The notes under the pieces are model-generated. The model made no database searches. It was given only the letters and a program-made list of their open reading frames with translations, and was not told where the DNA came from. A program made the position numbers and the translations under genes. From Isurus oxyrinchus (lineage: Eukaryota), in NCBI GenBank assembly GCA_026770705.1, contig JANJGN010000015.1, positions 103,044,001-103,108,000 on the forward strand: a DNA stretch of 64,000 nucleotides, read 5' to 3'. This document shows, in pieces, positions 43,066 to 62,326 of this stretch. Numbering within the stretch: position 1 is the first letter of the stretch; each line of letters starts with the position of its first letter.

Positions 43066-44434
43066 TCGGTCAAAGCATACCTGCTCTACGAATCTATGCT
43101 CTGCAAAACCACCTCCCTCAGTTTTAAACTATTTTGCTAGAAACGCAGGAGTCAATAGCGTAATTACATAAGTAATGCAGTACTAAAAAACGCTGGTTGC
43201 AACATTTTAAACTAGGTTTATGGCACGAGACACACCTTTTTCTTCCCAGGGGTGGGTATGTTAACAACTTGAACGTTCATGATTGGTTACTCCCACAGCA
43301 TTGCCTCTGTTCCAGCCTCAAGGCAACTGAGCCCATGCACCACATTTTGCCACAGTGGGCCCCAGAATGCAAGGAGCAAAATAATTTAAAAATATAAAGC
43401 TAAAAGTAAAGTAGAACATTTAAATATGTCTCACTTGTGTTCATGTAGGATTGGGTGCCTTCATGTGATCTCACCCATCATGTTATAGGCTTATGGCAAT
43501 ACTTCATACACAATGACACACCATACTACAAATATGAACATTTGCTGACATAGAATTCTCAAGTATTTTTAAAATTATACTTTTTCATTTAAAATTTTAT
43601 TAAACACTTATCAAACATCTTGATCACTTTGTGCCCCTAGTATCTCCCACAAAACAAGCTGCTTCTGTGTAGTTTACTACTCATCGTGAATTAACATTTT
43701 GCTGCCATGTATATAGTGATGACAAAATGCTGTTGTTGAAAATGGCTTCAAAGCTTATATGCACTGTATAAGAATGCAATGTTGCTCTCCTGCCACTATT
43801 TGCATATCCCTGCATAATTTTAAATAAAAAGTTTCATAATATTACAAGCACAAGACATTACCTTCATTCCAGAAGCAAATTGGTGTATTAACATATGTAA
43901 ATGTATGATGCCAAGTTATTTTTCTAACCAGATCCAGCTATCTTAGTGGAGTGCTCATCCTGAACTTAACTTCATTCTTCTGTGGTAAGGGCCCACATTC
44001 AAGTGTTGCTAAATATATAGTGATCCTTCCAGAAACAACCCACTTTTGGAAGGGCAACTTTACTGCCAAGAGTTTTCCACATTTCAGTTGTCAATGCATG
44101 AAAATGCTCCTTATTACTACACTTTTTTGAAATTCCAGTGAGAACAATGCATTCACTACTTTTGTATCACACAGGTACATCACAAGCTTTGTGAAAGCTG
44201 GCTTTTGTGCTAATTGTTTCCATTATTGAAATACACAATTTCAGAATCTCTCAGGAAAAAAAGATTAAAACAACAATTTAACAGTATAAAGAACAGGCAA
44301 TAACAATCAGTGTTGGTTTACTGACTTGTACAGTTCACCTTTTCCGATGAATGGTAAAAACAATATCCACATGATTCCCTTTGCTCTGATGTCATATGGT
44401 GGGAATTATTGGTGTTATGCTCCTCTCCACCTAC

Positions 44435-44908
44435 CTGTCACTGCTGGTACTACTGCTGCTGCTGACTGAATCACTGCTTGATGACCTACTCCGGGACCCA
44501 CTGCCACTGGGTGAACGCCGTGACCTTGATGCTTGACTAGATCGTTGTGGGGACTGGTTTCCTGACCGTGAGGAATGTGGGGATCGACTCCTGCTGTGCT
44601 GATAATTTTTTTCCTGTCGTCTCCCTCTTACTTCCCGAGTAATGTCTTCCCTGTAGAGGTCTCGGTGCACTACACTTGATATTGCAAACTGTTCCCTCCC
44701 TCTTTGTTCATAACGTGGATCATGAGCTTCAAATCGAGTTGGACTTCGACTTCTTGACCCATAATAAACTCCATGTTGTATAGTTCGATCTCGAGGATCT
44801 CTATAGTAATCCTGTTCATAATGTCTGGGGCGATCAAACCCTGCCGCTGTACGATCGTGGTGTCCATAGGCACTGTGATCATAAGTACGCTCCCTGTTAT
44901 CAGAAGCC
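44435..44908 (-). CDS. SPEN: SPEN exon 3 (474 nt): Arg/Ser/Asp-rich linker
   Basis: ASDNRERTYDHSAYGHHDR...SRSRSPHSS...SSSDSVSSSSSTSSD. Acceptor acacag|GGCTTC; donor GACAG|gtaggt; in frame with exon 2. Confidence 0.96.
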
Positions 44909-46241
44909 CTGTGTTTTGTTTGGGGATGGGGAGGAGGAGGAAAAAATAAGAATCTGTCAAGCATCAGCAAAATAGCAAAAAGTCCCCCAAATTGCCCCTT
45001 CTAAGCTCAGGGAAAACAAGCATTTGAATTTTAACTAGAGAGTATATAGAAACAATAGAGAAATTAGCAATAGCAAGGTATTCCGTAACTAAAATAGTTG
45101 GCATCAGGTTTCTCATTATTTAACTTTTTGAATTAGACATCAGTACAGCTTATGTTTTCCAATTCCCAGGCACCGACAGACAAGTCAAATTAATGTTTAT
45201 ATTATACTTAAGAGTTTTTGATATTTTCACATTAAGAATTCTCCCACTATCTCTTTCCTTGGCTCCATCAATTATTTTAAATTACAGAACTAATCATTTA
45301 AAAACTATACAGGAAGTCCTTAGATTTTCAAATATTGTGCTATACACCAAATCAATCCATAAGGGCGCTGACCATCAAACCTCAAACTACAAAGAACAAC
45401 ATTTTGTAGCCAGTGTTTAACCAGAAAACTCATGATTGGAAGAAAGCAAGAATTAAGCAGCAGCAGTTGTGCTGGTTATCTGTACCAGATGATGGCAATT
45501 CATTTTTTGAATATTAAAATTGGCTGAACCTCTGTAACCACTTTGACAAGGAGACAATCAGGCAGCAGTTGCTGAAAGGTGAACCTCTTATGTCCAAACC
45601 TCCAAGGAAAGTCCCCAGTGCAGAACACTGAAGGTTGCACCAAAAATTAAGTTACATTGTTGGTTGCTTCCTGTGGGCTTATGAGGTCCAAAAGGCTAAA
45701 AAGCTAGCCTGATTCACTATTCACATTTGTTCAAGAAAAGTCCTTCCTTTAAAAAAAATTAACTGCTTTCTTCCAATTTCCATCCTTTACAGTTAAATAT
45801 TTACTTCCTGATTTCCAAATGAAGTGATGCTTCATTAATTTTATTTAGCTAGTTATATTTCCTAATTATCAGGCATTAAAGATATGGAAAATATTGTTAT
45901 AGAGCCTGATTCAACATGGGTTGATTAATTGTTAAATATTTTATCTCCATAACAATGTAAAGAAATGTGGTTATTTTAATTTCGGATTTTATATCATTCT
46001 ACCCTGTGCTCTTATTAAATTATTTCATTTTCATTCTGGCTATTTTTGTCCCAACCCATTCTACATTTCTCCCACACAAGCTGTTAAAACATTATTACAT
46101 TTTTTTGTTAACATTCTACAGATTCAGGAAACACTGAGCAGCAAAGCACTAAACTATGCATAATGTCAACTTGACTTAATTTTTTAAGCTACAGTTACAG
46201 AACTGAGCTTACAACATACTGTGGAATCATTTTACACTGAC

Positions 46242-46292
46242 CTTTCAGCAATCAGAAGAAGCAAGCTGATTCCAAAGCGTTACTGCCATCAG
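46242..46292 (-). other. Candidate 51-nt stop-containing cassette (poison) exon in SPEN intron 2
   Basis: Acceptor tttgtattttttgtatgtcag|CTGATG; donor AAG|gtcagt. Joined to exon 2 it reads GG|C TGA, an immediate stop. Confidence 0.5.
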
Positions 46293-46491
46293 CTGACATA
46301 CAAAAAATACAAACTCCTAATTCATGAAAGACACAGACAGGCAGAGGAGCTAATAGAGCTGTAAGTCAGTGAGATTCTATTGGCTAAAGTGCTGTTTGAA
46401 TTTCTAGCAGTGCTACTGACTACTGAAGTTAGTGGAAAGGAAGGGTTGACTGGGTTAGGAGAGGGGCTAAGATATACATGGCAGGACATAC

Positions 46492-46537
46492 CAACCTTTT
46501 TAGACTGCAGTAAACACGACCTAAATCCCAATTAAAT
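46492..46537 (-). other. Candidate 46-nt frameshifting cassette (poison) exon in SPEN intron 2
   Basis: Acceptor tttgtacacttttctctccctag|ATTT; donor TTG|gtatgt. Inclusion gives ...AGG TTG|GGC TTC TGA, a stop 3 codons into exon 3. Confidence 0.6.
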
Positions 46538-47858
46538 CTAGGGAGAGAAAAGTGTACAAACATTCCCAATTTGGTCCCCTCTTAAAGGGGTAATCCAACT
46601 TCGGATAGTGCTAGTGCCGCATTGATTTGGGGATTGTATCAAGAAAACTGAACGCCCAAGATAGATAAACTTCCATTGCCAGTGTTAAGTGCATTCGCCT
46701 GAAAACAGATAGCTCCCAAAGTTAAAAAGTAACTCCCAAACCCCAAGACCTTTCTGAGATGGCGAAGTGCGTTCAATTTGATGCGTGTCGGTAGATAGAC
46801 GTATCCCAATTCTTGAGTCGATATTAAGCAACTACACCCGTTACTCCTAGGGCACAGTGCTTTCTTCTAGTAGAAGGCATTTATTATCCATTTTCTAGCA
46901 GTCAGTAGCCATTCAATTCTTATGAAATCTTTTCACATTTGATCTGAAAATTAAAATGTAACGTATCCACTAACAATTTTCCCTTGTTTGATAGTCCATT
47001 GGTACAATAAGGTAGAATCAAGAAGTATGTCAAACACAAACCAGGTAATCCATTCTGCCATACAACTACTTAAAGGTGCATATAATCCCGTGTTGAAGAG
47101 AAAGTGACCTCTATTCCATTATACGGGGAAAATGGCATTCCAAATGTTTAAAAGTTTCTAATATTTTATCTTTAGCCCATAAATATCCATAAGATCCAAT
47201 CAGGGAGAAACAAAATAAACAGTACAGATTTGTAGACCCATGACAACTGTATCTGTTACGTCCTCATTCTTCAGTTTTCCTTGCATGTATTCCTGTTGAA
47301 AATCATTGGCTGTAATATCCTTCCAGGAAATAGTAGATCAAAAGAGTACTCTATCTTCATAGAAATATTTCATATCCAAAGAATGTGCATCAATATTTTA
47401 TGTTTAAACCAAAGCCAAATATAATTGTGCAGACAGTCTTCAATGCACTTCAGTATTGCCTCAAAAAGTAGGTCTGGTAATCCCATAGTATTCCTCAGGT
47501 TAGTTGCACCAGACAGTAATATTATAGCCACTCGATCGAAGGGATACATCCAGAGGGAACTGCTTGCAATCCAGGGAGAAAAGGGAAGCTTATTACGAGG
47601 GTTAACTCCATATTAACTGACAGAAACCTTCCATCAAACTAACCAAACTTATCCCAGGAGTAGTCATCCAGCCAGCTGCAGGATAGATCCACTGCGAATA
47701 GGCCAGAGCTGCTACTGGATTCAATTCTCTTCCATATCCAACAACGGTACGAATGTACAGATTTCCTCAATAAATCCATCTGGGGAACCTATACATGAGT
47801 TGCTGCTTCTCACCACACTATTTATCAAAACCCTGCCTAGAGAAACCTTGGAACTTAC

Positions 47859-48179
47859 CCATCAAGTCTCCGTTCATAACGTCCTTCCCGTCCATGTAGT
47901 GATGGTGGTGGTCCATATGTTGGCCCCCCACCACCTCCCCTGAACCCTGAAACCTCTCTAGTACGAGTTCCTATAGGAACGGTATCATCTAATCCCCGAG
48001 CAGCACTCGGAATAGTGCCAGGCTCATTGTAATCCGTTCGCAGATCCCTGTCTCCCATTTTGTTGACAGAATTGTGCGCTTTCTGCGCACTCTTGATGTC
48101 CACAAAATCCACAAAGGCTGCCACTCCACCTTCTGAGCCCCTTTTGGGAAGAATTTTGACACTTTCCACACGGCCATAT
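47859..48179 (-). CDS. SPEN: SPEN exon 2 (321 nt): C-terminal part of RRM1 and Gly-rich linker
   Basis: Translates (R)YGRVESVKILPKRGSEGGVAAFVDFVDIKSAQKAHNSVNKMGDRDLRTDYNEPG...ERRLDG, recognisable vertebrate SPEN. Acceptor ttttctttcag|ATATGG; donor GATGG|gtaagt; phase 2 to phase 2. Confidence 0.97.
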
Positions 48180-49149
48180 CTGAAAGAAAAAGAAAAACAG
48201 AATTAGCTTAACCATTTTAAATTTAAATAGGTTGTGCTTAACTGTTCAAGGATACAACCATATATAAATATGCACAGTATAAATCTGCCAGGACATGATA
48301 CAATTGAGGGTTTGTATAATAATCCGCAAATTCATATTGTATCATTTTTATCATTTTGTTTTCTGCGCTAGAAAGAAATTTATTTGCAGTTTTGCAGTGC
48401 ATTATATTATATATTAAGATTTCTAATGGAAATACGTTGTTCAGGTGCTGGATGCACTGTCTCCAATAAAGTATATCCAAAAGCATAGAATAAGCATCAT
48501 TTTTATAGTTCAAGAATGTGCAGGGAGATGGGGGGGTGGTTAAGCTGTTTTAACATCCAGTTCACGAATACACAACAAAGTTCTGCCCGATCACCAGAAT
48601 CTAGACCATTGTATTGATATGTATCATCACTGCATAAAGGAACATCTACCATTTCCTATCAAGCCACTCTAAGATGTTGATTTACACCATGCTGAGTAAT
48701 CCGTTTTAATTAAATTAATCGATGTGTGGATTCTTCTTCAGACAAAGTGAGGCCTGAGGTAAAAATTTGATCAGAGTACACAAGCAATGGTCAGATATGC
48801 TACCCAACATTTACTGAAGTGCATTACAAAATTTATTAATCAATTTATTTATTTCTTCTGTTCTAGTTTGTTTAAACTAATTTTGGCCAAAGTATTACTT
48901 TCTTTTTTAAAAATTTATACAAAAAAATGAAAGCATTGATAAAAAGGAACCAATTTGCCATTTACTGAATTACTGCTACAAATAAACATGATCTCTAAGC
49001 AAAGTGTCTTAAACCAGAAAGTCTCACAACCTGCATTACTAAGTCATAAATTTTAATTTTCCATCATATCTCTACAGGTTTTTTTTAAACTGTAGTCAAT
49101 CCTCTCCCTTATTTTCCTGAAGGGTTTCAATTATCGCATTTCTTACAAG

Positions 49150-49565
49150 TGTCAGCCATAGATCAGTGATAGCACACTCAATTGAGGCAGAAGATTTGGG
49201 TTCAAGTCCTACTTCAGAGGCTTCAGCACAAAATTAAGGCTGACACTCCAGTGCAGGACCAACGAAGCATTGCCCTGACAAAGGTGCCATCTTTTGGATG
49301 AAACGTTAAATTAAAGCCCCACCTGTCTTCTCAGATGATATAACAGCAGGAAAGTTTTCCCTGGTGACCTGTTCAAGATGTATCCCTCAACCAACACCAT
49401 TAAAATGGATTATCTGGGCTTTGCTAATTGTAGGACCTTACTGTGCACAAACTGACTGCCATGTTTCCTATATTACTACAGTGACTATACAGCCAACAAC
49501 ATAATTTTGAAGTAAAGTGCTTTGGTATACTCTGTGGATGTGCAAGACACAAGTCTTTCTTTCTT
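49150..49565 (+). mobile_element. Deu-domain SINE (SacSINE1/AmnSINE1-like), near full length
   Basis: tRNA-like head with gggttcaagtcc B-box, Deu core aggtgccatcttttggatgaaacgttaaa, and (tctt)n tail. Fragments of this family also occur at ~28130-28420 (-), ~34580-34790 (+) and ~62775-63075 (-). Confidence 0.75.
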
Positions 49566-49954
49566 TGGCTGCTGAATGCTCTCTGATACTTCATTCATAG
49601 CACAGTAGAGCTTGATCCTATTGTCACTTGATGACTACACATAGACTATTTCCACACTGGTATGCTAGTGCTACTGGTTCTCAAAATATGTCTCACATAC
49701 AGTGGCTACCCAAAGTAAATTTGATAAATTTGCTAAGATTGGCCTGGTGGTATTTGGCAAATTAATTTTACAATTGGGGTTGGCTGCACTAGATTTGCAT
49801 TTTTGGAGTCCATGGCAATGCCACGTATCAATAAACTAAAAACAGCCATATGTACTTCTAGCAGGAGTTTCTGTGACCAGAAACAAAAACTTAAGCAAAT
49901 TTTGTCATCCAAACCTAAATAATAATACTCCAACTGTTCCCCATTGGCTGAGAA

Positions 49955-50615
49955 TTTTTTCATCATTTCATGGAATGTGAGTGTTGCTGGCAAAACCAGC
50001 ATTTGTTGCTCATCCCCAATTGCTCTTGAGAAGGTGGTGGTAAGACACCTTCTTGAACCGCTGCAGTCCACATGGTCTAGGTACATGTACAGTGTTGTTA
50101 GGATTTTGACTCAGCAACAGTGAAGGAACTGCAATAGAGCTCCAATTAGGATGATGTGTGGCTTGGAGGGGAATTTGCAACTGGTGCTGTTCCCATGCAT
50201 TTTGCCCTTCTAGGTGGTTAAAGTCACAGGTTTGAAAAGTGCTGTCAAAGGAGCCTTGTTGAGTTGCTGCTGTGTATCTTGTAGTCACTGTGTTGGTGGT
50301 GGAGGAGGTGAATGTTTAAGGTAGTAGATCAGTTGTTGATCAAGCAGGGTGCTTTGTCCTGGCTAGTGTTGAGCTTCTTCAGTATTGTTTGGAGCAGCAC
50401 TCATCTAAGCAAGTGGTGAGTATTCCATCACATTCCTGACTTGTGCCTTGTTGATGGTGGATAGGCTTTAGGGAGTCAGGTGGTTTGTGAGGCAAATGTT
50501 ACTTGCCACTTATCAGGCCAAGTATGACTACTATCCAAGTCTTGCAGCATATGGACAAGGACTGCTTCAGTATCTGAGGAGTTGTGAATGGTACTTAACA
50601 CTGTGCAGTCATCAA
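49955..50615 (-). mobile_element. Same LINE family as 25590-26275, reverse orientation
   Basis: Reverse complement of the same 3' end and of the YKAQVR.VMEYSPLA region. Confidence 0.8.
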
Positions 50616-50739
50616 CTAAGTCAAAACAGATTTAGGACCTACCCCATCTGTAAGGTTCAGCTGTTCACGGAATAAATTCATTGTGCTATTGGGGTCGCCA
50701 TTTTCAGCATGTTTTGTTTTTAAATGAAAATTACCAAGA

Positions 50740-51453
50740 TGAGAATCTTATCCACCCAACCAATGGCATATTTGAAAGCCATTTAAATGAAACAGGTGGC
50801 TAGCCCACCATCTTCCTGTCCACCTCGAGCTGTTCCCCCATATTAGTGGGTAGATAAGGCATCAGCCCGCCTTTAGGCCTACTGAGGCCCTTAAAGGCCA
50901 ATTAAAGTCCACTTAAGGGCCTCTTTCTGCCTTCACTGTCATAGAGGAAGGCAGAGGAAAGTGGCCAGCCCGCCATTTTCCCAACTCGGGATAAAAGGTG
51001 AGAAGGGGGCGGTCCCGTGTCCATAGGTGGCACCCCTTGCAAAATGGTAGCACCCCCTCCAAGATGGTACCTCCCCCTTTCCTGCTCCACTCCCCCACCC
51101 TGCCCATTGTTTGGGTCCTCATCCTTCCTCGACCAAAAACGCCACACTTAGCTCAAAGTCCTGTATCCGTGGATCTTCCTCTTGGGACTCTCTGTATTCC
51201 CAGCAGCAGGCACTGCTGCATTTTAGCATTGCTGGGACTACTCAGCTGCTGGCCAATCAGATTAGCCAGCAGACCTCGAGGGTGGGACTTCCTGTTCTGA
51301 AGGGGCAGAAGTCCCACTCTCACCTCGTTAATGTCCCGTCCCGTCCCCCCGCATATTATCGCAGCGGGCAACCCATTTCAAAGTTAGCGGGTCCAAGGCC
51401 AACTTTTCTACTGGGGGTCGAGCATTACCACCCCCGCCCGTAAAATGCAACCC
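50740..51453. mobile_element. GC-rich MITE-like element, same family as 18412-19645
   Basis: Right end cgtaaaatgcaaccc; shared core gctggccaatcagattagccagcag...gggtgggacttcc. Left end degenerate. Confidence 0.65.
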
Positions 51454-51899
51454 TGTATCTATTTGCCACATCTCTGTGTCCAGTCAATATGTTGCAACTT
51501 AAAAAGACCAAAAATATTTTCAAGGTTCCAAATTTCATATAGAAATCATCAAGGTATAAATGTTTGGTGCATTTGCATTCAGCTTCTGGTTGATAGCAGT
51601 ATAGCAAATTAAATTAGTGATATGGAAAATACATGTCAGAAAACTAAGGCTTAAATGTTACAATGTTTTGCAACACCACCATGAAACAAACCAGAATCCT
51701 ACTTGGGAACTGGAAATTGTAGCTTGGTGTTGTGGCTTTAAATTTTCAAAATATATATTATGCAACACTTCCATTTGTAAACAGTAGGCATTTTACCAGA
51801 CACCAAATTCCAGAAATGCGAAGTTTCGACTCCTACTCCCCCAAACCAAAACTGCCAGATACTGTACGAGTTAGCACCCACTTCCTTTTAAGTGTCAGT

Positions 51900-53480
51900 T
51901 ATTTCCTGTCTCACCCAGAAATACTGATCCTCCCGTTCAGGGTGGGCAACGCCATGGAAGAACCGAAAAGACAGATGCATGTTTTTATAATTAAGTGAAA
52001 AATTATTTCGAAAGTTTCGTCTGTAATGTATGGTTGCAACACAAGGCGGTATAACCAACCAAGATGGGACAACACTGATCAACTTAATTAAAATCTATGT
52101 TTTAATATCGCTGACCGTGAAATCCGCAAGCAGTAATATGCCACCCTTTCCACAAACATTTCAGTGAATGCTGCTATCTGATTTATTTATTTGAACCCAC
52201 TCTAAACACAAACGTTGCTATCTGTTTACAGGCCAGTGTACACTTTGAAAAGTCAAGGACGTTTAAACAAGAGGCTGGACTTTTGGGAAAATGCCGAAAG
52301 GAGCAGCTTAACACGTTTCCCTCAATGACGAGCTGAACTGGCCACATGGACACACCTTGTGGCTGCCTTCCAAGCTCTCTAATGCTGCAATCTCGCAGCC
52401 GACTGGCGGTGCAATGCTGTAAAATGGCGGGACACATCACAGGGATCGAACGGACCCATGTAATGGCGGGAGACAGAGGCAAAAAAAGGCTTGAAATAAT
52501 GTCAGCCGCCGAGTAAATCAATGAGGCTAACAAAAAAGACTTGCCAGATTTCGAATAAACTGCACAATTCGGTGCTAAACTGTAATCTAATTTTCCCAAA
52601 GTAATCTTCTGTTGCTAATACTGCACGATTTTCATTATTTCAAGGACATCAGCCCTAGTAGGGTTCTCATTGGACGCAGTCATCAATTAACTTACCTTTC
52701 AGAAATTGGGCAGCTCGAGCAGGGATATCACATGATCCACTGGGAGTGTAGCAGGATTTCAATGCGGTATGTCCTAATTTGTAGATTTCTCTCTACGTAA
52801 ATATAAATCAAAATGGTTCTTCCCCATTTCTGAAAATAGACAAGTATCTTAGGTTTCCTACCGTTATCCAATACGAATGTTTTGTACAATGATCTCCGTA
52901 AATGCGATTTTGTGTATTTTAATTAATTTGTGTTGGGATTAGCATGGCGTTCGCACGTGGATTGAGCTGCCTGATTTCTTCTGGGCAAATCTCTTGAGAG
53001 AAGCGAATGCTACATTTTTACACAATACATAATATACACTACAGAGCCAAAACAATTCTGGTTTTGTGTATGTCCGCGCTCCGCTGCAATCGCTGACCCA
53101 AAACCTTTTCTAACGCAGTCAAATAGCCCAAACAATTGACGGTTCAATTTTTGCAACGAAAAAAGATTGAAAGGAAACCCTGCCCGAAGTATGGTAGAAT
53201 TTTATTGCTATACTCGGCTGGCTTCACCTGCCGACACAGCCGATCCAAACTATAATTTTTTGGGGGGGCGGTTAAGTGGGATGTCAAAATGACAACTACA
53301 CCAGCCTATGATAGCAATTTAATCTGTGAAATGCGTGTGTATATAATATAATCATACGTGGATGACTATACTTCAAAACGATAAACACGATATTTCTTTT
53401 AAATACAGACGCAGAATGGAGACGGTTGCGGTTATCCACAACCTCTAAGCACTACCAGTGGAGCGAATAGGTACAGCTCC
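51900..53480. promoter_or_regulatory. CpG-enriched, TE-poor promoter- or enhancer-like region in intron 1
   Basis: CpG density is visibly far above the flanks. Two AATGGCGGGA (YY1/E2F-like) motifs at 52423 and 52462, ATTGG at ~52669, CACGTG at 52954, GC box at ~53265. Confidence 0.55.
52696..52829 (-). other. Candidate 134-nt non-coding or poison exon in SPEN intron 1
   Basis: Branch-like cctaa plus tacttgtctattttcag|AAATGG acceptor; perfect AAG|gtaagt donor; no open frame into exon 2. Confidence 0.5.
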
Positions 53481-54084
53481 ACAGTGATCATATTTGTAAC
53501 GCAATCACTGCTCAACAGTACAGCATATTTTAAGGCTCCAGTGTTTTCTTCCTTAAAACAGAAAGGCCTGGTAATATTTTACTTCAAAATAGAAACCAGT
53601 ATAATCTCGGTTTTAGAAAAACTCAATTATAATTTGTACATTTTACAAACAGCCCTTAAGCATGTTTCTGGTTGTGAACACATTCGTTTGTCCAAATTAA
53701 ATCGATTTTGTCAAGTGAGGTTGGGTCAAAAAACTAGTGTAGTATACTGTTTAACTCTGGAACGGTTTAAATGGAAAGCATAAACTTTAAGGCATGGTCG
53801 TTAAACAACCTGCAGGATCCCTTAGTACACAAACAACAATATTCACAAATACAAATATTCACTTCTACTAATGTATAATAATAGCACCAGAGGTCTGGCA
53901 AGCTTTGCATGGATTGCTGCTTAAAGAATCATAGAAGCACACTCAAGTGCAGTTATAAAAATGTCTTTTTTAGTTAAATACCATGAACTGGATATTATCC
54001 ACAAAATACTCTCAAAGTTAGTCCCTGAAGCCATCATAGCAAACATCTGAAGTCCATGAAATTTGCCTAAAGCTCATCTCATAG

Positions 54085-61342: not shown

Positions 61343-62326
61343 TGGGTCCCCTATTATTTGTCATTTATATAAACGACATAGATGACTATGTGGGGGGTAG
61401 GATTACTAAGTTTGCAGATGACACAAAGATTGGCCGGGTGGTTAACAGTGAGGTTGAGTGACTTGGGCTACAGGAAGATATAGACAGGATGGTCAAATGG
61501 ACAGATAAGTGGCAGATGGAATTTAACCCTGAAAAATGTGAGGTGATACACTTTGGAAGGAGTAATTTGACAAGGAAGCATTCCATGAACAGCATGACAC
61601 TAGGAAGTTCTGAGGAACAAAGGGGCCTTGGCGTATGTGTCCATAGATCTCTGAAAGCGGAGGGGCATGTAACTGGGGTGTTGAAAAAAGCATATGGGAC
61701 ACTTGCCTTTATCAATCGAGGCATAGATTACGAAGTAGGGAGGTCATGTTGGAGTTGTATAGAACCTTGGTGAGGCCACAGCTGGAGTACTGTGTGCAGT
61801 TCTGGTCGCCACATTATAGGAAGGATATGATTGCACTGGAGGGGGTGCAAAGGAGATTCACCAGGATGTTGCCTGGGATGAAACATTTAAGTTATGAAGA
61901 GAGATTGGATAGACTTTGGTTGTTTTCGTTGGAGTAGAGAAGACTGAGGGGCGACCTGATCAAGGTGTACAAGATTATGAGAGGCATGGACGGGGTGGAT
62001 AGGGAGCAGCTGTTCCCTTAGTTGAAGGGTCAGTCACGAGGGGGCACAAGTTTAAGGTGAGGGGTAGGAGGTTTAGGGGGGATGTGAGGAAAAACTTTTT
62101 TACCCAGAGGGTGGTGAGGTCTAGAACGCGCTGCCTGGGAGGGTGGTGGAGACGGGTTGCCTCACATCCTCTAAAAAGTACCTGGATGAGCACTTGGCAC
62201 GTCATAACATTCAAGGCTATGGGCCAAGTGCTGGTAAATGGGATTAGGTAGGTACGTCAGGTGTTTCTCACGTGTCAGTGCAGGCTCAATGGGCTGAAGG
62301 GCTTCTTCTGCACTGTGTGATTCTGT
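61343..62326 (+). mobile_element. CR1 (HER1-like) LINE, 5'-truncated, relatively young
   Basis: LFVIYIND.D....G.ITKFADDTKIG (RT catalytic region), KWQMEFNPEKCEVIHFG, LELYRTLVRPQLEYCVQFWSPHYRKD, FRGDVRKNFFTQRVV, plus CR1 3' UTR. Contains stops and frameshifts. Confidence 0.93.

Follow-up and report, generated by a model that had tools for sequence, protein, structure and literature searches.

The SPEN locus and its second intron

The window analysed here, a 64-kb stretch of Isurus oxyrinchus DNA, carries the 5' portion of SPEN, which is encoded on the minus strand, as are all SPEN features below. Exon 2 (47859..48179; 321 nt), which encodes most of RRM1, is separated from exon 3 (44431..44908), the source of the common acceptor, by an intron 2 of 2950 nt with GT..AG ends (44909-47858). 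The first SPEN coding exon lies ~3.5 kb past the window end, and the exon and intron numbering therefore stands. Intron 1 carries LINE reverse-transcriptase-like fragments (61400-62250) and a CpG-rich stretch (52000-54000; observed/expected ~0.8) that may be an enhancer, an internal promoter or a young repeat.

A preliminary description of this DNA had proposed an RNA-level SPEN autoregulatory element in intron 2, noting that the intron has no recognisable transposable element (TE) and lies in TE-rich surroundings. Both repeat observations were borne out: a search of the species' own genome (4.98 Gb) with the intron returned one candidate, the intron itself, and two flanking stretches of the same size returned 2091 and 24262 candidates. 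By local BLAST, which is less sensitive than the own-genome search, 4 of 16 same-size tiles were also repeat-free, so that the absence of repeats is by itself modest evidence.

Conservation of intron 2 among vertebrates

We scanned metagenome contigs with the exon-2 protein and recovered at least 10 loci of host DNA. The exon of the bird-like locus L002 is identical to a named bird protein (107/107 residues) and that of L003 to a named teleost protein (105/105), while the exon of the teleost-like locus L001 matches an eel protein at 75 of 78 residues. L003 stops 1354 nt into the intron, ahead of the core described below, and its words were counted in those 1354 nt. A further locus, L010, is a SPEN-like gene lacking an intron after the RRM1 segment; it was left out of the comparison, and the intron-2 switch is thus not universal among the relatives found. 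In the prokaryote and viral collections neither the exact core pattern nor the exon-2 protein gave a match, and the ESM Atlas returned generic RRM clusters only.

The alignment check proposed in the preliminary description, run against L002 and L001, revealed conservation well beyond close relatives. The window intron aligns to L002 over intron positions 1-319 (66% identity, 340 columns; the block at 47540..47858) and 1100-1653 (71%, 574 columns), and to L001 over positions 1308-1407 (80%, 104 columns; 46452..46551). The three-way core within the latter consists of an acceptor-like site, a candidate whose AG ends at 46538 (46538..46557), followed after 42-47 nt by a tandem donor with GT at 46495 and 46491, which lies within 21 bases identical in the window, L002 and L001 (46481..46501). 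Downstream of this distal donor, the intronic flank at 46206..46451 retains 71-74% identity to L002. Immediately past the donor, a pyrimidine tract (46423-46460) contains CUAAC twice; these words, both kept in L002 and one in L001, are possible branch-point-like or QKI/SF1 sites.

A predicted poison extension of exon 2

The proximal, productive donor (47853..47861) is followed at once by an in-frame UAA (47857-47855), which is also present in the bird-, teleost- and coral-like loci and is automatic for a phase-2 intron starting with GUAA. Since the conserved distal donor lies 1-2 kb downstream of the coding donor and shares its next acceptor, its predicted use would extend exon 2 by 1363 or 1367 nt (46492..47858), and the transcript would meet a premature stop through the UAA just past the proximal donor. 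The corresponding lengths are 1301/1305 nt in L002 and 1818/1822 nt in L001.

The preliminary description had seen two splice-site-bounded poison segments, given without coordinates, and a hairpin. Of this anatomy, the acceptor at 46538 and the donors at 46495/46491 proved deeply conserved, but the 42-nt form between them is in frame and stop-free, a frame shift arising with the 46-nt form only. Most likely the unit is an extension of exon 2 as far as the distal donor and not two poison cassettes plus a hairpin. The spacing from acceptor to donors is 42/46 nt in the window and 42/46 and 43/47 nt in the other two loci. All three loci lose the frame with the longer form (46/46/47 nt), and one of the three does so with the shorter (42/42/43 nt). 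No reading frame across the core is common to the window, L002 and L001, and we accordingly rejected a coding exon or alternative first exon. The extension also contains no conserved poly(A) signal, its sole AAUAAA (46885) being lost in L002.

All donor and acceptor scores rest on textbook frequencies and are rough. A strong-scoring donor at 46241 (46236..46244, minus strand) was dropped as a conserved element because it is absent in L002; in a closer relative it is unchanged, and the contig there reads across it unspliced. Over the 87 nt of the surrounding interval, 46217-46303, no difference is listed for a relative whose other intronic contig is ~9% divergent; the interval contains both this donor and the region of the fold-z minimum window.

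The hairpin block that the preliminary description had characterised as CpG-retaining is present, with 10 CpG at intron positions 1001-1250, but none of 11 CpG is kept in L002. Its fold z of -2.8 came from one of 48 windows and was not the lowest, and we set the hairpin aside; the CpG-rich stretch (46603..46840) is not conserved and is probably outside the mechanism. A UGGAUUA word followed by a 5-bp hairpin (46576..46597) is kept in L002, and the hairpin is missing in L001. More generally, no window had an outstanding fold z, and the covariation term of the three-way core fold was unfavourable (+1.67; three sequences). Scanning 44000-54000 against Rfam gave no match at E<=1, and the intron shows no tandem GC-rich cores with U-rich spacers.

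A sense-strand GGAU array ahead of the distal donor

The extension carries an array of 19 GGAU words (46525..47777), 13 of them UGGAU. In the first 1363 nt of intron 2 these counts compare with 8.4 and 3.1 expected, and in 46200-47858, where the preliminary description had picked out a GGAU cluster, with 8.2 and 3.2; no shuffle of 500 reached either count, so that the cluster stands. The 3' half of the intron contains 2 GGAU against 4.8 expected. The excess is confined to the sense strand, as the reverse word ATCC occurs 5 times in 46200-47858 (5.5 expected). Among 148 tiles of the same genome (110 kb, both strands), none reached 19 GGAT or 13 TGGAT, the maxima being 16 and 7.

Similar counts were found in the other vertebrate loci. 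UGGAU occurs 13, 14, 13 and 14 times in the window, L002, L001 and L003, respectively (~3 expected and 0/500 shuffles in each); no other 5-mer ranks above it when the four loci are combined, and its count is stable even where alignment is lost. Downstream of the distal donor the number drops to 1, 2 and 1 in the window, L002 and L001, although in L002 GGAT, but not TGGAT, is also in excess there (10 vs 5.1). Between the window and L002, 10 of 19 GGAU words are kept in place, compared with 13% for any 4-mer (p 4e-5), and their spacing is irregular (9-210 nt). UGGA is enriched as strongly as GGAU. GGAUA occurs 8 times (2.1 expected), giving the array the repeated GGAUA of the Xist repeat A family, and GGAUAC is found at only 2 of 19 sites.

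We found no excess of canonical m6A words between the donors: in the window DRACH is depleted (17 vs 29.0) and GGAC occurs 3 times (4.6 expected). DRACH is similarly low in L002 (13 vs 24.4) and at expectation in L001 and L003.

Coral loci

The excess ahead of a conserved distal donor may extend, in weaker form, to corals, for which our data are suggestive. The L004 exon matches a named stony-coral SPEN at 96% identity, and in that SPEN the junction of this exon with the following one falls where it does in vertebrates. L004 and L006, which are ~75% alike in the intron and are related rather than independent, have introns of 3.0-3.1 kb with a common strong donor at +2081/+2130; L005, L007, L008 and L009 are near-copies of one or the other and were not counted as independent. 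Upstream of this donor, a boundary picked after inspection, GGAU occurs 17 times (8.0 expected) in L004 and 21 times (7.8 expected) in L006, and it is at expectation downstream and in intron 1. When the interval is instead fixed at the first 1363 nt, GGAU is found 11 times (4.7 expected; p 0.004) in L004 and 12 times (5.4 expected; p 0.008) in L006, and the UGGAU excess is significant in L004 only. No alignment between coral and vertebrate introns was found. A highly conserved non-coding block at L004:7140-7365, with the matching part of L006, ends in a strong donor and sits relative to the GGAU-rich interval where the vertebrate core does, again with no alignment between the two.

Transcript evidence in the same species

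Four sequencing runs were assembled against the interval; none of the runs available is on record as RNA, so that an RNA label is a guess. In a same-species run guessed to be RNA, three contigs fall within 46678-47827, inside the extension. Two runs gave no true contig, namely X15 (0) and the DNA control X5 (short chance pieces only), and the missing cover in the 3' half in X17 was not counted as evidence. The contigs contain no splice joints; exon flanks lie outside the stretch used, so that the exon-3 junction could appear only as a loose end, and none was seen. In X20, contigs cover both 46241 and the end of the intron without splicing, which indicates that this library contains unspliced RNA or DNA. 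Among short database proteins, 5 of 58 (P0016, P0020, P0035, P0036, P0042) carry exon-1 residues fused to exon 2 and terminate at its donor. An extended or unspliced form predicts such proteins, but truncated gene models or unspliced RNA would account for them as well.

Relation to the mouse Spen switch and other m6A-controlled introns

An m6A-dependent alternative 5' splice site has been described in mouse Spen intron 2 (Wei et al. 2021, PMC8327914). As far as the accessible text and tables of that study go, the mouse cluster comprises only two introns, 141517318:141520859 and 141517318:141522072, which share one acceptor, end at exon 3 and have donors 1213 nt apart; neither joins the proximal donor to an acceptor inside the intron. 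Loss of METTL3 lowers the share of the distal donor from 0.337 to 0.167 (p 0.002; adjusted p 0.156), and five m6A peaks tile 141520883-141522052, between the donors, with none under the coordinate prefixes of the remaining intron (PMC8327914). The authors term such splice forms poisonous. Gene, intron, the position of a distal donor 1.2-1.4 kb past the exon-2 donor and the unproductive product, predicted for the shark, are the same in mouse and shark, whereas the mouse switch was reported for cells and DRACH was named as the general motif (PMC8327914). We infer that the shark tandem donor is the ortholog of the mouse distal donor (offset 1213 nt in mouse, 1363/1367 in the shark and 1301/1305 in L002), a match by position only. 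Conservation in shark, bird or teleost, the GGAU array and the DRACH depletion do not appear in the accessible text and tables of PMC8327914.

In the same genome we used YTHDC1 as a single control gene, recognised by peptide motifs, and its intron after the exon that ends the YTH domain was taken as the counterpart of mouse intron 11. This intron (L016, G000:C4:70789000-70798999, minus strand; ~2.97 kb), which probably corresponds to the m6A feedback intron known from mouse, has strong donors at about +390, +1119, +1482 and +1555. It contains 10 GGACU in its first 1500 nt and none in the remaining 1468, with no UGGAU excess (3 vs 2.5). In the available account of the mouse YTHDC1 intron 11 and WTAP intron 6 switches, a methylated interval between donors or before an alternative end likewise diverts the transcript of an m6A-pathway gene (PMC8327914). 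The YTHDC1 counterpart here uses GGACU while SPEN uses GGAU, so that within one genome the reader-gene sensor appears with the canonical word and SPEN with GGAU.

Other self-limiting RNA-binding protein genes offer partial parallels. The Spen-family gene FPA of Arabidopsis likewise curbs its own expression by terminating the message beyond the first RRM (reviewed in PMC10111866), but does so at a poly(A) site in intron 1, whereas the one AAUAAA of the SPEN extension is not kept in L002. The poison exons of SR-protein genes in ultraconserved elements are likewise conserved unproductive splicing of RNA-binding protein genes; unlike those, the SPEN intron has 66-86% identity in blocks, and its signal is mostly a dispersed word count rather than an alignment.

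GGAU as a possible link between m6A, SPEN and Xist repeat A

SPEN crosslinking on its own intron 2 has reportedly been seen in mammals, whereas the figure legend available names exon 2 of Spen (PMC7282817). SPEN binds its own RNA, with irCLIP signal over exon 2 of mouse Spen, and represses itself (PMC7282817); without SPEN, nascent Spen transcription rises, and SPEN targets RNA that is GA-rich and bound by SR proteins (10.1101/2025.05.21.655143). The proposal that RRM2-4 of SPEN recognises structured RNA in intron 2 was not sustained: the intron has no conserved fold, and in the accessible reports RRM2-4 prefers U-rich RNA in vitro (10.1101/2025.05.21.655143) or sites marked by AU richness only, without homology to repeat A (PMC7282817).

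The word itself has closer ties to m6A and to repeat A. Wild-type METTL3/14 prefers GGAC 3.7-fold over GGAU but still methylates GGAU, YTH domains read it, and METTL14 R298 cancer mutants favour it (10.1101/2023.03.16.532618). GGAUU makes up ~17.5% of non-DRACH sites in one dataset, where it is the second commonest (PMC12816753; no SPEN rows in the accessible supplements), and holds the same rank, sensitive to inhibitor, in another (10.1101/2025.11.02.686099). In one tethering reporter, however, changing GGACU to GGAUU abolished methylation (PMC10787126), which together with the DRACH depletion leaves m6A on GGAU itself unproven. In human Xist, GGAUA is present in 8 of 8 full A-repeats and GAUAC is the top SPEN crosslink site (PMC10870365), and deletion of GG16,17 of repeat A lowers SPEN association while mutation of U19 cripples silencing (10.1101/2025.05.21.655143). 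Reading these two sources together, we take the GG16,17/U19 positions to spell GGAU. The role of this 3' part of the core (G16-U19) is explained by neither SRSF1 nor SRSF2 (10.1101/2025.05.21.655143). Like Xist repeat A, the SPEN extension places many GGAU words on one nascent RNA; unlike it, the extension has no tandem 25-nt core, regular U-rich spacers or Rfam match, and the base before GGAU is mostly U (54/82 sites), where Xist mostly has C, with GGAUAC again rare (2/19).

Interpretation and alternatives

We interpret the interval as an orthologue of the mouse switch, a poison extension of SPEN exon 2 that is governed by the GGAU array, with m6A and SPEN-linked proteins tuning its use, and give this reading a probability of about 0.62. 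On paper, the exon-2 donor and the distal donor, the latter conserved across vertebrates, would compete for the exon-3 acceptor. Judged from the sequence, a transcript that continues past the proximal donor would stop at once and encode only ~135 residues (RRM1), and it would presumably be removed by NMD or nuclear decay. Use of the distal donor, its METTL3 dependence and the m6A-enriched interval are observations from mouse only; in the shark, the donor would be used, its GGAU words would carry m6A and the outcome would depend on SPEN. The conserved signal is probably GGAU, a weak METTL3/14 site and a word needed for association of SPEN and SRSF1 with repeat A. An array of such weak sites would respond only when recruitment of the writer by SPEN or RBM15-type proteins is high, which would close a negative feedback loop on SPEN dose, and the short acceptor-donor unit probably helps to define the distal donor. 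What persists of the autoregulatory element first proposed is thus a conserved unproductive-splicing element, supported by conservation and the mouse data, without the cassette and hairpin anatomy or a direct reading of structure by RRM2-4.

The same conserved splice sites could delimit a cassette exon of 42 or 46 nt, from the acceptor at 46538 to the tandem donor, whose 46-nt form would shift the frame and lead to decay, with the GGAU array as an upstream intronic control region. Conservation of acceptor, spacing and donor, and the frame shift from the second donor in all three loci, speak for it, but no intron of the accessible mouse cluster links the proximal donor with an internal acceptor, the mouse m6A signal spans the whole interval (PMC8327914) and the 42-nt form is in frame, stop-free and without a conserved peptide; we regard a cassette as unlikely. 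We think it similarly improbable that the array chiefly serves as a nascent-RNA landing pad that recruits SPEN in cis, via SR proteins, and restrains transcription of the gene itself, much as repeat A acts on Xist, with any splicing change secondary. The rise of nascent Spen without SPEN, the SR-bound GA-rich targets and the effect of the GG16,17 deletion (10.1101/2025.05.21.655143, in its available part) would fit, as would the equal enrichment of UGGA; yet the array ends at a base-for-base conserved donor that a pure pad does not need, and apart from GGAU it shares no repeat-A feature, with GGAUAC at 2/19 sites.

Developmental regulators often carry conserved intronic enhancers, and the interval might act as DNA, either as an enhancer or as an internal promoter whose alternative first exon would yield a SPEN lacking RRM1; there is an in-frame ATG for donor 1 in the window and for donor 2 in L002. 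We consider this very unlikely, as only the sense strand shows the word excess (ATCC 5 vs 4.1), the invariant core is a splice site, no frame is common to the three loci and the CpGs are not kept. The idea that the donor is real while the GGAU excess arose neutrally, from composition or from an old tandem duplication, draws on the shortness of the words and on the motif having first been chosen by eye. It is already largely refuted and hardly credible, given the same excess in three other vertebrate loci (0/500 shuffles each), retention in place far above the 13% background and irregular spacing.

Significance

The kind of element is already known from mouse (Wei et al.), and the GGAU array and the depth of its conservation appear to be new; neither turned up in the literature searched, which lay mostly outside subscription journals. 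Beyond the poison extension itself, we tentatively suggest, as a possibility that is rather less than even, that the GGAU array is an ancestral RNA code engaging SPEN, kept by word count since the split of corals and vertebrates, and a sensor of SPEN dose built of deliberately weak m6A sites, and that Xist repeat A later adopted GGAU to capture SPEN. The idea of an ancestral RNA ligand, raised in the preliminary description, thereby gains a concrete motif link to repeat A.

The choice of RNAs by SPEN in cells poses a puzzle: in the accessible part of one study its preference is U-rich in vitro while a GC-rich repeat-A core is needed in cells (10.1101/2025.05.21.655143). The same word, arrayed in SPEN's own intron and kept in vertebrates and perhaps corals, offers a direct test of SPEN RNA choice. 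If the proposed reading is true, the array would exemplify selection acting on a non-canonical m6A word, and METTL14 R298 cancer mutants would be predicted to lower SPEN.
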